Below the pieces are notes generated by a model that saw nothing but the letters and a program-made list of their open reading frames with translations, had not been told where the DNA came from and made no database searches. From an uncultured Clostridia bacterium (GTDB lineage Bacteria > Bacillota > Clostridia > Christensenellales > Borkfalkiaceae): a stretch of 64,000 nt of DNA. The stretch is taken from positions 619 to 64,618 of the forward strand of contig CANPZV010000002.1 in NCBI GenBank assembly GCA_947589285.1, written 5' to 3'. Numbering within the stretch: position 1 is the stretch's first letter; each line of letters starts with the position of its first letter. A program made the position numbers and the translations under genes. Positions 9,244 through 55,160 of this stretch are shown in pieces.

Positions 9244-9286
9244 GCAAAAAGAAAAGACATAACGGCATTTCCTCGCCATTATGTCT
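9244..9286 (-). terminator. Intrinsic terminator of carboxypeptidase gene
   Basis: 12-bp stem 9255-9266 / 9275-9286 (one G-U on the minus-strand RNA), 8-nt loop, UUUUCUUUUU tail. The 5' arm overlaps motif copy 1. Confidence 0.65.
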
Positions 9287-9305
9287 GACATAGTACTATT
9301 CAAAA
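9278..9305 (+). repeat. Dispersed dual-palindrome motif, copy 1 of 8
   Basis: attatgtctgacatagtactattcaaaa. The 20-nt core has 1 mismatch to consensus. 8 nt downstream of stop codon 9309-9311. Confidence 0.9.
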
Positions 9306-9308
9306 CGG

Positions 9309-10454
9309 TCAATTCCAATTTTTCGCGGCCTCTCGGAAGGCGTCCCACCATGTGAAGGCGGGCGCGTCGTCCATGGAGAGGAGCCTCGTCCGTCCGATCT
9401 CGACGCCGTTCGAAAAGAGGATGGCCTCTCCCGCGGCGTCTCCCTTACAGACGGGTGCGTTCAAGCCCTCGATCGCATATTCGACGGAGCAATCGGCGTT
9501 CTCCCCTTTTTTGCCGAAAACGGAGAGCGATTTTTCGGCGCAGAGCCTCATTTCCTTGCACTTGCTCCCCAAGACCGCGGCTCTTTCTCCGATCTCCTCC
9601 CCCGCTTTCAGGACAGTGCGGCACTCATACCCGTTGAAGGCCTCGTCAAAGAGCGAAGAGACGATCGCGTTTCTCTCTTTGGAATTTTCCGCGCCGATGA
9701 CGACGCTGACGATCCTCATATCCCCGCGCTTGGCGGTGGCGGCAAGGCAGGAACCCGCCTCGTTCGTATAGCCCGTCTTGCCCCCGTCGCATCCGTTGTA
9801 GAAGCGGACGAGCTTGTTCGTATTCGTCATGAGGATCTTCCTCCCGTCGGGATGCTCAAAGTCCTCCGTCCAGATCTTTGTGTATTCAAAGTACTTCTCA
9901 TGTTTCAGAAGCTCACACAGCATGACGGAGACGTCTTTGGCGCAGGAGTACTGCGGCTCCTTCGGAAGCCCCGTGCAGTTTGCAAAAAGCGTATTTTCCG
10001 CGCCGAGTTCCTTGGCCCGCGCGTTCATTCTGTCGATAAAGGCGGTCTCGCTCCCCGCGACCCGCTCGGCAATGGCGACGCAGGAATCGTTCGCAGAACA
10101 CACGACGATCGATTTCAGAAGCGATTCGACCGTATAGGAAAGCCCCGCGGCGAGAAAGACCTGGGATCCCCCCATTCCGGCCGCATTTTCGCTGACGGTG
10201 ACCGTCTCACCGTAATCAAGTTCCCCGCGGTCGGCCGCCTCAAAGGAGAGGAGCAACGTCATGATCTTGCACATGCTCGCGATCGGGAGACGCTTTGTCT
10301 CCTCCTTTGCGTAGATGACCGTCCCCGTCCCGTAGTCGCACGAATAGGCCGATTTGCAGTCAGGCTCGGTCTCGAGCGCACGGACAGTCACGCCGTTTCC
10401 CATCATAAAGATCCCCGCCGCAAGAAGCGCGGCAGCGCAAACAATTTTCTTCAT
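9309..10454 (-). CDS. D-alanyl-D-alanine carboxypeptidase (DacB/DacF-like)
   Basis: SxxK (ASMCK), SxN (SAND), KTG (KTGYT). Signal peptide MKKIVCAAALLAAG. ATG 10454, with an upstream GTG at 10460 also possible. Confidence 0.85.
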   Translation of the reverse strand: MKKIVCAAALLAAGIFMMGNGVTVRALETEPDCKSAYSCDYGTGTVIYAKEETKRLPIASMCKIMTLLLSFEAADRGELDYGETVTVSENAAGMGGSQVFLAAGLSYTVESLLKSIVVCSANDSCVAIAERVAGSETAFIDRMNARAKELGAENTLFANCTGLPKEPQYSCAKDVSVMLCELLKHEKYFEYTKIWTEDFEHPDGRKILMTNTNKLVRFYNGCDGGKTGYTNEAGSCLAATAKRGDMRIVSVVIGAENSKERNAIVSSLFDEAFNGYECRTVLKAGEEIGERAAVLGSKCKEMRLCAEKSLSVFGKKGENADCSVEYAIEGLNAPVCKGDAAGEAILFSNGVEIGRTRLLSMDDAPAFTWWDAFREAAKNWN

Positions 10455-10488
10455 ATCCACAGTTTGTGACAGGAGACGGAAAATAAAC

Positions 10489-11085
10489 TTACAAAATTTT
10501 ACCTATCGGGTGAAAGAGTGCGAGGAGAAGGATCATCTCGAAAAGACAGACCGCGATGACAAGGCCAAGCAGGATCAGAGCGTCGCGCAGGAGGTCGAGA
10601 AAATCGCAGGCGCAAAAACAGAAGGAAAAAGCCCGCGCAAACGCTAGCGTCGCCGCAAAGACGAGAATGGCGTCGGCGCAGAGATGAACGGGCAGATAGA
10701 GAACAAAGACGATCATCGCCCCCGTTACCCCGTAATATTCGAAAAAAACGTACAGGCACCCGCCGCAGGTGAAGGCGCGGTAGGCGAGGACGGCGAGCGG
10801 AAGAAGGAGCGCGATCGGGTGAAAACTTCCGATGAGGATGAGAAGGAGCAGAAGCGCGCATCCCCCCGTCCGTTGGAGAAAGATGAGAAAGACGTTCGTA
10901 TCGGAGAAGCAGACGTCGGTCAAAAAGCCGTCGCAGATGGAGAGATGATAGTCATAGACGGCGGACGTCGTGACAAAGCATGCCCCGAGGATCAAAAAGA
11001 CGAGAACGAGGAGCGAGAGAAAGATCAAGGTCTTTTTCCGCGAAAAGACGCTCCCGAAAAAATTTTGCAAAAAAAATCGGTCCAT
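10489..11085 (-). CDS. Polytopic membrane protein, SpoIIM-like
   Basis: 198 aa with about 5 TM segments. Size and topology resemble stage II sporulation protein M. No diagnostic motif. Confidence 0.4.
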   Translation of the reverse strand: MDRFFLQNFFGSVFSRKKTLIFLSLLVLVFLILGACFVTTSAVYDYHLSICDGFLTDVCFSDTNVFLIFLQRTGGCALLLLLILIGSFHPIALLLPLAVLAYRAFTCGGCLYVFFEYYGVTGAMIVFVLYLPVHLCADAILVFAATLAFARAFSFCFCACDFLDLLRDALILLGLVIAVCLFEMILLLALFHPIGKIL

Positions 11086-11122
11086 ACTCTATGATATGAA
11101 CCGTTTTTCGCGATGATTCAGC

Positions 11123-53545: not shown

Positions 53546-53604
53546 ACAAGCACCTCCCGCCCCCGTTGACACGGGGTGCAAATCATCGTATGAAGAGGCG
53601 CTTT

Positions 53605-53651
53605 TTTTTGTGAAAATAGCCGCTTTTGAGAGTTTTCCCCTCAAAAACGGC
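53605..53651 (-). terminator. Terminator-like hairpin after glpK
   Basis: 12-bp stem 53640-53651 / 53619-53630 (one G-U), 9-nt loop, UAUUUUC tail (weak U-run). Directly follows motif copy 8. Confidence 0.45.
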
Positions 53652-53653
53652 TT

Positions 53654-53681
53654 ATTATGTCTGACATAGTACTATGTAAAT
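53654..53681 (+). repeat. Dispersed dual-palindrome motif, copy 8 of 8
   Basis: attatgtctgacatagtactatgtaaat, perfect core, 14 nt after glpK stop codon 53691-53693. Confidence 0.9.
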
Positions 53682-53690
53682 TTTGATTTT

Positions 53691-55160
53691 TTACAAATCA
53701 AAGTGCATCATTGCCCGCTTTTCGGCGATCAGATAGGCGTCATAGATCTTCTTCGCCTCCCTTTTTGCCTTCGGGACGAACACTCTCTCGCACTCCCGCC
53801 TCGCGGGGATGTCGCCGAACTCCATGAGACCTTTGGCGCATGCGCAGAGGTATGCCGCGCCGAGGGCCGTACTTTCCCTCTCCCGCGGCCGATTGACGTT
53901 GGTGCCGAGTACGTCCGCCTGAAATTGCATCAAAAAGTTGTTCTGCGACGCGCCGCCGTCGCACTTGATCTCCTTCAAGAGTATCCCGCTGTCCTTCGTC
54001 ATGCAGTCGAGGAGTTCCCTCGCGCCGCAAGCGATGCTCTCCAGCACAGCGCGGACGATGTGCGCCCGCGTCGTCCCCCGCGTGATCCCCGTGAGCATTC
54101 CCCTCGCCTCGCTGTCCCAATGGGGTGCCCCGAGGCCTGTGAATGCGGGTACAAAGGAGACGCCGCCCGCATCGGGCACCGAGAGCGCGATCCTCTCGCT
54201 CTCCGCAGAGGAGGGCAGGATCTCCAGCCCGTCGCGCAGCCACTGGACGGAGGATCCCGCGTGGAATACGCTCCCCTCGAGCGCGTAGCACGTCTTTCCG
54301 CGTATTTTATAGGCAATAGTGGAGAGAAGTCCGCTCTTTGAGGCGATGCAACGCTCCCCCGTATGGAAGAGCAGGAACAGCCCCGTGCCGTATGTGATCT
54401 TCCCCTCGCCCTCCGTGAGCGCGGCCTGCCCGATGAGCGCGGACTGCTGGTCCCCCGCGACGCCCGCGAGTGCGACCTTACTGCCTCCGACGTTCGCCGT
54501 TCCGAAATCGGCGTCCGACGCCCTCACTTCTGGCAAAATTTCGCGCGGAATGCCGAAGAATTTGAGAAGATCCTCGTCATAGTCGAGCCTGTGAATATCG
54601 TAGAGCATCGTGCGCGAGGCGTTCGTCACGTCGGTCGCAAAGGTCTTTCCCTCCGTCAGTTTGAAGATGAGATAGCTGTCGATGGTGCCCGCGCAGAGCT
54701 TTTTCTCCTTGAGGAGGGTCCGCGCGGCGGGAACATGGTCGATCACCCAGCGGATCTTGCTCGCCGAAAAGTAGGCGTCGTTCGTCAGCCCCGTCCTCTC
54801 CCGCACGATCTGCACGACGTCCCGCGGCATATTTTTGCAAAAGTCGCTCGTCCGCCTGCATTGCCAGACGATCGCGGGACAGACGGGTTCGCCCGTCTCC
54901 CTGTTCCACAGCACGACCGTCTCGCGTTGGTTCGTGATGCCGATCCCCGCCGCCTTACCCTTGGCGAAGGCGAGACAGTCGTTGAGGACATAGGCCGCCT
55001 TGAAATAGATTTCGTTGGCGTCCTGCTCCACCCACCCCGGGAAGGGATATTTGCTTTCAACTTCCTGTTGGGCACCGTGGACAAACATGCCCTTCTCGGT
55101 ATCATAGAGAAAGGCGCGGATGCTCGTCGTGCCTGCGTCCAATGCGATGACGTATTTCAT
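53691..55160 (-). CDS. glpK: Glycerol kinase
   Basis: MKYVIALDAGTTSIRAF, GWVEQD, ITNQRETVVLW motifs. ATG 55160 with AAAGGTGG SD. Confidence 0.95.
   Translation of the reverse strand: MKYVIALDAGTTSIRAFLYDTEKGMFVHGAQQEVESKYPFPGWVEQDANEIYFKAAYVLNDCLAFAKGKAAGIGITNQRETVVLWNRETGEPVCPAIVWQCRRTSDFCKNMPRDVVQIVRERTGLTNDAYFSASKIRWVIDHVPAARTLLKEKKLCAGTIDSYLIFKLTEGKTFATDVTNASRTMLYDIHRLDYDEDLLKFFGIPREILPEVRASDADFGTANVGGSKVALAGVAGDQQSALIGQAALTEGEGKITYGTGLFLLFHTGERCIASKSGLLSTIAYKIRGKTCYALEGSVFHAGSSVQWLRDGLEILPSSAESERIALSVPDAGGVSFVPAFTGLGAPHWDSEARGMLTGITRGTTRAHIVRAVLESIACGARELLDCMTKDSGILLKEIKCDGGASQNNFLMQFQADVLGTNVNRPRERESTALGAAYLCACAKGLMEFGDIPARRECERVFVPKAKREAKKIYDAYLIAEKRAMMHFDL

Follow-up and report, generated by a model that had tools for sequence, protein, structure and literature searches.

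The DNA analysed here, a 64,000-nt stretch of contig CANPZV010000002.1 from an uncultured Clostridia bacterium of the Borkfalkiaceae (hereafter the window), carries eight near-perfect copies of the motif tttgC-ATAGTACTATGTCAGACATAAT. All eight lie on the minus strand and were returned by a search allowing 3 mismatches, for which 0.00 matches were expected in the window. Five copies are intergenic and follow the genes for a D-Ala-D-Ala carboxypeptidase, typA, thyA, gpsA and glpK; in these, ATAGTACTATGTCAGACATAAT is mostly preceded by tttaC or tttgC. Three are intragenic and lie in dxs, spoIIIAE and glmS, host genes which we identified by Pfam. The original prediction knew the five intergenic copies, and these are intergenic as it placed them, but the window total is eight. 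When a weight matrix built from the sites of other species was run over the window, the eight sites scored 41-53 bits (maximum 53), and no other site exceeded 8 bits except the reverse-strand echoes of the same eight palindromic cores (12.9-22 bits). Since intermediate scores are missing, sites in the window are either essentially perfect or absent. Beyond the window, on its 81.6-kb contig, no more canonical copies were found. A literature search for the motif strings returned nothing relevant, and the element is, to our knowledge, undescribed.

We argue, with moderate confidence, that the motif is the core of a protein-bound DNA element of ~150 bp, that its binder would be a membrane protein with a PadR-type DNA-binding domain and a long coiled coil, and that the copies would serve as architectural or tethering sites. 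The evidence comprises the placement and conservation of the copies, a phased A/T pattern in their flanks, their strand polarity, and the almost constant association of the motif with the promoter of a PadR-family gene in related genomes.

Placement after stop codons and conservation of the sites

Measured on the minus strand to the 20-nt core CATAGTACTATGTCAGACAT, the five intergenic copies begin 0-21 nt past the stop codon of the preceding gene, exactly as had been reported. The description of the two copies which are followed by another cistron also proved accurate: the folA ATG lies 21 nt past the core, and the open reading frame (ORF) at 41797, which in its longest reading encodes a YcxB-like protein, starts within the motif and uses the motif's internal ATG. 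Comparison with random placement, a check of the kind which the original prediction had named, established the enrichment just 3' of stop codons. In the window 9% of the possible intergenic placements lie ≤22 nt 3' of a co-oriented stop and all five copies do so (5/5, P = 6e-6), and among 69 independent groups of intergenic sites in other species 24 lie ≤22 nt past a co-oriented stop, where 4.2% would be expected (P = 3e-16), null fractions which our gene calls, made with a codon-usage model trained on Pfam-verified genes, may have lowered by overstating intergenic space. On the other hand, the statement that none of the copies is promoter-proximal could not be upheld; as the spacers are short, every intergenic copy also lies 0 to ~120 nt upstream of the next co-oriented gene. 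Hairpins were indeed found after three copies, those behind the carboxypeptidase, typA and glpK, but the third has a weak U tail and the terminator scan made no call there. The 5' arm of the first hairpin is the motif's own AGACATAAT. The carboxypeptidase terminator stem is made of the motif's 3' half in this way (AGACATAAT...TTATGTCT, window 9255-9299), so that motif and terminator share sequence and a third half-site-like copy arises.

Outside the window, the exact 18-mer AGTACTATGTCAGACATA occurs in at least 118 stretches from ~75 or more species-level Clostridia genomes, which include Borkfalkia, Gallimonas, Christensenella-like and other organisms from rabbit, chicken, mouse and human gut. 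The scan covered Clostridia assemblies with one genome per species, and all site counts for other species given in the text and in Table 1 are counts among the matches listed. Orthologous positions were found by clustering the proteins flanking the sites. By this approach the spoIIIAE site was recovered in 12 species, the miaA site in 13 and the dxs site in 5, and further orthologous sites were seen 3' of gpsA, glpK, thyA and dacB and inside glmS. Sites persist at 50-65% identity of the host protein (dacB 50%, spoIIIAE 62%; for glmS the figure is 71%). The comparison of orthologous spacers that had been proposed as a check thus found the motif kept at orthologous positions, and it also found a loss: the thyA orthologue of Candidatus Gallimonas sp. 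(L064), 84% identical, has no motif after its stop, which indicates that single sites can be lost or gained between species. A separate group of sites lies at the start of thrS, between a terminator and the start codon, in nine species (group 2; loci L003, L007, L011, L034, L045, L059, L096, L108 and L116). There the motif follows a terminator-like hairpin with a T run, with which a T-box leader probably ends, and precedes the ribosome-binding site of a gene that is thrS-like by eye from its N-terminal residues; this places it in the 5' untranslated region and not after a stop codon.

The intragenic copies are informative about how the sites arose. In miaA the copy encodes LSTMSDII, and at this position B. 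subtilis MiaA has LEEAVEQL, of the same length. The unchanged length in miaA and the use of another reading frame in glmS imply that copies were made by substitution, at the expense of the protein, and not by mobile insertion. Of the earlier suggestion that the motif reflects insertion or selection at gene ends, the second part therefore stands, as placement at gene ends is real and selected, while insertion does not fit the coding copies. The likeness to cassette boundaries failed for the same reason, and also because the flanking genes are syntenic housekeeping genes. We rejected an integron attC site or cassette boundary on the synteny of typA, thyA-folA, gpsA, glpK and dxs and on the size of the core, only 22-27 bp; in integrons, variable promoterless cassettes next to an integrase are bounded by attC sites, imperfect inverted repeats of 57-141 bp. 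A phage origin was likewise rejected, as viral contigs gave five matches, about the chance level for an 18-mer, and a single AT-rich phage locus accounts for four of these.

A miniature mobile repeat of the REP, BIME or MITE type that inserts at gene ends would also be short, palindromic and multicopy and would lie mostly just 3' of genes. E. coli REP elements, which Liang, Rudd and Deutscher reportedly placed within 15 nt of stop codons in 2015, resemble the present motif as short palindromic repeats directly 3' of a stop and before a terminator or the next gene. They differ from it in forming stable RNA/DNA hairpins, in being species-specific, in not being known from within genes, and in the lack of conservation of their orthologous sites. 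Here three of the eight copies are intragenic and show no change in length, no stable hairpin is formed, the conserved core of 22-27 bp is not surrounded by any longer repeat unit, orthologous positions are kept at 50-65% protein identity, and viral contigs are essentially free of the sequence. The REP/BIME class was rejected on these grounds, and we consider a mobile repeat of any of these types improbable in the extreme.

Strand polarity, phased flanks and core of the element

The copies are strongly oriented. With improved gene calls, 36 intragenic copies were found to be sense and 3 antisense, and between tandem genes, once miscalls were removed, 42 copies were sense and ~5 antisense. The core has stop codons in two of the three frames, so that it can stand only in non-coding DNA or in one permissive frame; this coding constraint cannot explain the sense bias, because each orientation leaves exactly one open frame. 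The minus strand of the window is its G-rich strand and bears all eight copies, and across genomes 66 of 76 independent groups (87%) have the motif in sense on the G-rich (leading) strand. Convergent spacers, in which the motif is 3' of both genes, are particularly telling. In 15 of 17 such groups the motif points the same way as most of the distal genes (P = 0.002), which implies that orientation follows the polarity of the chromosome arm, that is replication and bulk transcription, and not just the adjacent gene.

We analysed the flanks in 142 aligned copies, with orthologues down-weighted to 78 independent groups. On both sides of the core A/T-rich and G/C-rich positions alternate, with A/T peaks of AATT-like sequence at -3, -14, -24, -35, -45 and -56 and at +29, +40, +50, +61 and +72. 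The fitted periods are 10.40 bp in the left flank and 10.62 bp in the right, and the phasing is detectable from about -70 to +80, i.e. ~65 bp to each side of the core. Its amplitude was 0.095 against 0.005 (maximum 0.014) at random positions in the same loci, and it was equal around intragenic (13 groups) and intergenic (65 groups) copies. The eight sites of the window by themselves gave an amplitude of 0.089 against 0.016 +/- 0.009, a value which none of 1000 random sets reached; around the first copy the phased flanks reach roughly from 9220 to 9370. The signal is mirror-symmetric about the core, with a centre of symmetry that is ambiguous modulo ~5 bp (2.75, 8.0 or 13.0). Phasing of this kind is well known as a sign of duplex DNA that bends or wraps around a protein, and as a sequence pattern it suggests that the motif is the specific centre of such a complex.

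This bears directly on the proposal that the motif functions in the transcript, for instance as a processing, stability or translation signal of a 3' untranslated or intercistronic region. Such an RNA element would account for copies that are sense, are transcribed with the upstream gene and begin 0-21 nt past its stop; a motif immediately 3' of a stop need not act in RNA. A mirror-symmetric helical-repeat signal of ~10.5 bp means nothing for RNA and hence does not support that reading. Moreover, motif RNA did not fold stably (-1.6 to -5.6 kcal/mol, with z close to 0) and Rfam gave no family match at the gathering threshold or at E ≤ 1, on which grounds a structured 3'-untranslated or intercistronic RNA element was rejected. 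In convergent spacers the orientation follows chromosome polarity, and at the PadR-family gene described below the motif is upstream of the promoter and antisense. The role in the transcript was thus not borne out, and we regard an RNA element as highly improbable.

The core tttgC-ATAGTACTATGTCAGACATAAT can be read as two overlapping palindromes, CATAGTACTATG and TATGTCAGACATA, or alternatively as three CATAG/CATAA half-sites of alternating orientation. Eight sites in other genomes, among the matches listed, are perfect 27-bp palindromes, ATAGTACTATGTCAGACATAGTACTAT, with a fourth half-site. The palindromic core and the 27-bp forms point to a dimeric or tetrameric DNA-binding protein. All eight copies of the window carry the extra AGTAC arm on the same side, and the usual site is therefore genuinely asymmetric. 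In two other loci, L004:4608-4673 and L026:6298-6359, sites occur in close pairs, tandem at a distance of 43 bp and inverted at 39 bp (~four helical turns). Promoters were also considered as an identity for the core. A sigma-70 promoter was rejected, as the most conserved bases would form its spacer and the would-be final T of the -10 element is unconserved (A35 T32 G41 C34); sporulation-sigma and sigma-54 promoters were rejected because the spacings do not fit their consensus sequences.

A PadR-family coiled-coil membrane protein as candidate binder

One orthologous group of sites lies in the divergent promoter region adjoining a PadR-family gene. The gene is absent from the window. The N-terminus of its product is a winged helix of the PadR/LmrR type (E = 9e-20), with 1xma as the best solved relative. 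The middle part consists of ~300-500 residues with 66-70% E/R/K/Q/A/L and 1-4% P+G, the composition of a coiled coil, and the C-terminus has four hydrophobic segments, which we read as transmembrane helices. Because the number of membrane spans is even and there is no signal peptide, the DNA-binding domain is predicted to be cytoplasmic. NCBIfam holds no specific model for this protein and gave generic PadR and SMC-like coiled-coil matches only. Homologues fall into 268 clusters at 90% identity, all of them in Clostridia assemblies.

The motif or a variant of it was found upstream of the PadR-family gene in 10 species of the genome scan (among the matches listed) and in the loci L125 and L127, and it is still there in distant relatives whose other neighbouring genes differ. 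A metagenome scan by alignment to the DNA-binding domain yielded 80 loci. In 68 of these the motif (≤5 mismatches) precedes the beginning of the DNA-binding-domain match by 100-340 nt; of the remaining 12, four have no upstream DNA and eight have diverged variants at the same spot (AGTAYTATG-N5/6-ATAAT). All 76 metagenome loci with enough upstream DNA thus carry the motif or a variant upstream of the gene, and elsewhere in the sequence of the 80 loci there were only six other matches. The motif is always antisense to the PadR-family gene with its AGTAC arm facing the -35 element, at a distance of 5, 16 or 38 nt depending on the clade; the spacing therefore changes by whole helical turns and the phase is kept. 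A site at the regulator's own promoter is where autoregulatory PadR operators lie, and such an arrangement usually indicates a DNA-binding protein that regulates its own gene through an operator. Hence the PadR-family protein likely binds the motif. The original view that the motif is no classical operator holds for most copies, but not for this promoter in related genomes, where the motif behaves as one.

Two relatives show variations on this arrangement. In the distant relative L124 (10001-12620) one ORF encodes the PadR domain and another, in a different frame, the coiled-coil/membrane part, so that the gene is genuinely split or the assembly contains a frameshift; the upstream element is a long-range inverted repeat, ATTCTGTCTG-N28-CAGACAGAAT. 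At L126:440-660, upstream of a relative of the gene with low GC (35%), the motif is missing and another inverted repeat is present, ACTATTATA-N15-TATAATAGT, perhaps an operator that has diverged.

The main rival explanation is an ordinary regulon, in which the PadR membrane protein would be a one-component transcription factor of the ToxR/CadC kind and its sites would activate downstream promoters or act as roadblocks. The own-gene site does occupy activator-like positions upstream of the -35 element with the helical phase kept, each intergenic copy of the window lies within 0 to ~120 nt of the next co-oriented gene, and sites are co-oriented with the genes downstream. Nevertheless, the targets (folA, glmM, yabP, thrS, a Met-gamma-lyase-like gene, spoIIIAF and others) share no functional theme, and some conserved copies are buried 355-920 nt deep in essential genes, a long way from the next start. 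A consensus sigma-A promoter is present ≤260 nt downstream in only 22 of 78 groups, with no preferred distance, and in three cases in the window a terminator stands directly 3' of the motif. The orientation of the convergent-spacer sites, which follows chromosome polarity, is a further point against regulation of single genes, and on the whole we think an ordinary regulon unlikely. In characterised PadR repressors the operators are of the ATGT-N8-ACAT type, lie at promoters and number one or a few. PadR and LmrR repressors share with the present system the winged helix and the ATGT/ACAT sequences at the regulator's own promoter. They are soluble proteins of 110-190 residues, whereas the candidate adds a coiled coil and a membrane anchor, and the motif has an apparently different half-site spacing and many sites away from promoters.

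The association with this gene also argues against a DNA uptake signal of the Haemophilus USS or Neisseria DUS kind, which would be spread by biased uptake and recombination. Several features recall such signals, namely a conserved core flanked by A/T tracts, coding copies made by substitution, copies near terminators and a sequence common to related species. USS and DUS occur about once per 1-2 kb, include many one-off degenerate variants and are not known to favour a strand. Here the density is only ~1 per 10 kb, decayed copies are missing and scores are bimodal, positions are orthologous and not scattered, and 87% of the groups are on the leading strand. The autoregulatory arrangement, in addition, implies a cytoplasmic binder. 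An uptake signal is in our opinion very improbable.

The flanks, in turn, call to mind strong gyrase sites, or sites of another topology complex, at gene ends, where positive supercoils build up through transcription; the core would then position the enzyme and the phased arms would wrap the GyrA C-terminal domains. The E. coli gyrase motif is 130 bp in total, with a ~36-bp centre, two 47-bp arms and a GC periodicity of 10.75 bp, and in that organism transcribed units show gyrase enrichment on their downstream side, as does BIME-2 (PMC6379681). The present element has a centre of ~34 bp, arms of ~65 bp and a period of 10.4-10.6, a footprint of the gyrase type, and many copies at 3' ends; the E. 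coli motif, the Mu strong gyrase site and BIME-2 all resemble it in their symmetric footprint of ~130-150 bp, their arms phased at ~10.5-10.75 bp and their 3' enrichment (PMC6379681). Gyrase recognition, however, is degenerate and proceeds by indirect readout (PMC6379681), whereas 18-20 positions are invariant here. The core is asymmetric, and its palindrome is centred on a base pair and not between base pairs, as a 4-bp staggered cut needs. Gyrase sites, furthermore, need no polarity, and a motif that is phase-locked to the PadR promoter in all 76 of the 76 loci speaks for a dedicated binder; the gyrase motif has a degenerate centre where the present one has an invariant asymmetric core tied to a regulator gene of its own. 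Gyrase or a similar complex therefore appears quite unlikely to us as the binder.

The coordinates of the copies and of other features of the window are collected in Table 1. On the same contig, at L128:653-702 and ~8.6 kb past the end of the window, there is a degenerate inverted pair, GTAGTATTATGGCACACATAAT and ATTATGCCTGACATAATATTAA (each ATTATG-N5-CATAAT), in the promoter region of an operon of an HD-domain gene, dnaG and sigA, 19 kb past the last site. At the contig end just before the window (L130:245-2194) a large serine recombinase gene (Resolvase, Recombinase, Zn_ribbon_recom) and a small helix-turn-helix gene may mark the edge of an integrated element.

Table 1. Motif copies, stop codons, hairpins and neighbouring features of the window (distances from stop codons in the stop rows are to the 20-nt core)
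Feature	Position	Strand	Remarks
Motif copy 1	9278..9299	-	Perfect 22-mer; 9 nt 3' of carboxypeptidase stop; 47.4 bits
Motif copy 2, in dxs	17964..17985	-	2 mismatches; read as H-S-T-L-S-D-I; right arm almost symmetric (CATAGTAT); kept in at least 4 other species
Motif copy 3, in spoIIIAE	23982..24003	-	Read as Q-S-T-M-S-D-I-I; kept in at least 11 other species, with protein identity as low as 62%
Motif copy 4	30387..30408	-	Perfect; 1 nt 3' of typA stop, 10 nt 5' of terminator hairpin; 51.5 bits
Motif copy 5, thyA-folA spacer (49 nt)	33256..33277	-	folA ribosome-binding site directly 3'; common to 2 other species
Motif copy 6	41784..41805	-	1 mismatch; between gpsA and YcxB-like ORF; common to 3 other species
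Motif copy 7, in glmS	51368..51389	-	3 mismatches; other frame, K-V-L-C-Q-T-E-Y; motif TAA changed to GAG; kept in 2 other species
Motif copy 8	53654..53675	-	Perfect; 15 nt 3' of glpK stop, then hairpin, then glmM; 52.8 bits; common to 2 other species
D-Ala-D-Ala carboxypeptidase stop	9309-9311	-	8 nt to core
typA stop	30410-30412	-	0 nt to core
thyA stop	33287-33289	-	8 nt to core
gpsA stop	41828-41830	-	21 nt to core
glpK stop	53691-53693	-	14 nt to core
Terminator-like hairpin	9255..9286	-	13 pairs + T run; overlaps copy 1
Terminator-like hairpin	30342..30376	-	3' of typA copy
Hairpin	53618..53652	-	15 pairs; 3' of glpK copy; -24.5 kcal/mol, z = -5.6
HipA-like toxin kinase gene (HipA_C + Couple_hipA)	11207-12603		Small ORF upstream; among sporulation and housekeeping genes
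tRNA gene	41051-41124	minus	~100 nt downstream of the YcxB-like ORF behind motif copy 6
tRNA gene	57758-57845	plus	

Proposed architectural sites and comparison with known systems

In the reading we favour, DNA would be held or organised at dispersed sites by a long-stalked protein anchored in the membrane, at the level of the chromosome and not of the gene. In the lineage of the window, extra copies of the element are kept at functionally unrelated fixed positions: after stop codons, in short intercistronic spacers, and in the codons of dxs, spoIIIAE, glmS and miaA. Proximity to stops would then mark where the core is tolerated, since in a gene-dense genome the bases between a stop and a terminator or the next ribosome-binding site may be those in which it does least harm. 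The uniform orientation would mean that an asymmetric tight complex is kept such that the replisome and most RNA polymerases traverse it from the same side, a feature reminiscent of polar winged-helix complexes such as RTP-Ter. Placement agrees with tethering sites, being conserved in position, regardless of promoters and also intragenic, and the combination of DNA-binding domain, coiled coil and membrane attachment expected of a tether is present in the candidate binder, though in the candidate only.

The closest parallels are RicO-ricS of Staphylococcus aureus, RacA-ram of Bacillus subtilis and RocS of Streptococcus pneumoniae, in which a protein made of a small helix-turn-helix domain, a coiled coil and a membrane attachment bridges DNA and membrane (bioRxiv 10.64898/2026.03.06.710092). 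The candidate binder resembles these proteins in its three parts, and the motif resembles their specific 14-18-bp motifs, which lie at positions unrelated to gene regulation. The domain is MerR-like there and PadR-type here; attachment is by an amphipathic helix or by DivIVA binding there and by four integral transmembrane helices here, and the coiled coil of the candidate is much longer. The present sites, moreover, are asymmetric and strand-polar with 150-bp phased flanks, and they are denser, eight in 81.5 kb against nine ricS sites in 700 kb. In the Noc-NBS nucleoid occlusion system of Bacillus subtilis the sites are palindromic, dispersed and frequently within genes, and the protein bound to them draws DNA to the membrane. 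The motif is similarly palindromic, dispersed and partly intragenic. Noc, on the other hand, is a ParB-family CTPase that spreads along DNA and has no homology with the protein proposed here, and NBS is a symmetric 14-mer not known to have polarity or phased flanks.

Polarity brings in one more alternative, a polar barrier to forks or translocases like RTP-Ter, which would be permissive from origin to terminus and would block backward forks or loop extruders. RTP-Ter and Tus-Ter offer an asymmetric site of overlapping half-sites for winged-helix dimers in an orientation fixed with respect to replication, and the two overlapping palindromes of the core recall the A and B sites of Bacillus Ter. 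Such a barrier would show the leading-strand orientation that we observed for 66 of the 76 groups, for 15 of the 17 convergent spacers among them, and for all eight window copies. Known Ter sites, in contrast, are a handful confined to the terminus and are bound by a soluble protein; a membrane anchor and a long coiled coil are unexpected for a terminator protein, and the DNA-binding domain of the candidate is PadR-type, not RTP, by sequence. A barrier also leaves the phased flanks unexplained. The likeness does not imply fork arrest, and we judge a fork barrier to be very unlikely.

Several observations weigh against the tethering interpretation itself. Its link between protein and motif is one of conserved adjacency only, and the gene lies outside the window. 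The half-site arrangement of the motif, ATGT-N3-ACAT plus the second palindrome CATAGTACTATG, appears to differ in spacing from the ATGT-N8-ACAT of characterised PadR operators. Known tethering systems have few, origin-clustered sites, and here there are eight in 81.5 kb, at irregular intervals of 2.3-9.6 kb followed by a 19-kb gap, so that no regularity of spacing can be claimed. Orientation with replication is not fully separable from orientation with transcription. With regard to the flanks, a wedge model places only two of the eight window sites in the top 1% of intrinsic curvature, so that we speak of phased bendability and not of proven curvature, and a winged-helix dimer or tetramer alone does not explain phased flanks of ~65 bp per side. 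Oligomerisation, wrapping or display at the tips of supercoiled loops are possibilities; curved DNA of ~75 bp pins supercoiled loop tips in vitro (PMC6301789).

A bolder version of the tethering interpretation, which we put forward tentatively, is that of a chromosome architecture hard-wired in a lineage of gut Clostridia. The PadR protein, on a coiled-coil stalk with a possible reach of tens of nanometres, would grip curved, strand-polar elements of 150 bp every few kb, at gene ends and also within essential coding sequences. Depending on their orientation, these would anchor the DNA to the membrane or bound domains for supercoils, loop extruders or forks, and would thus be a bacterial counterpart of oriented boundary elements. 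The chance that the polarity and the wrapped footprint reflect a mechanism new to bacteria is substantial. If the tethering interpretation is right, the system would be a new, non-homologous, sequence-specific connection between chromosome and membrane. As compared with parS, NBS, ram, ricS and matS, it would be new in its strict strand polarity along the replichore, in its nucleosome- or gyrase-sized phased DNA footprint, and in a selection strong enough to replace, in many species, residues that are conserved in essential enzymes. Should the protein be, more modestly, a PadR regulator in the membrane whose sites are numerous and unusual, this would still explain a conspicuous conserved repeat. 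Were the architectural role to hold, a defined motif and a candidate protein would be at hand for studying chromosome organisation, segregation and topology in uncultured gut Clostridia.

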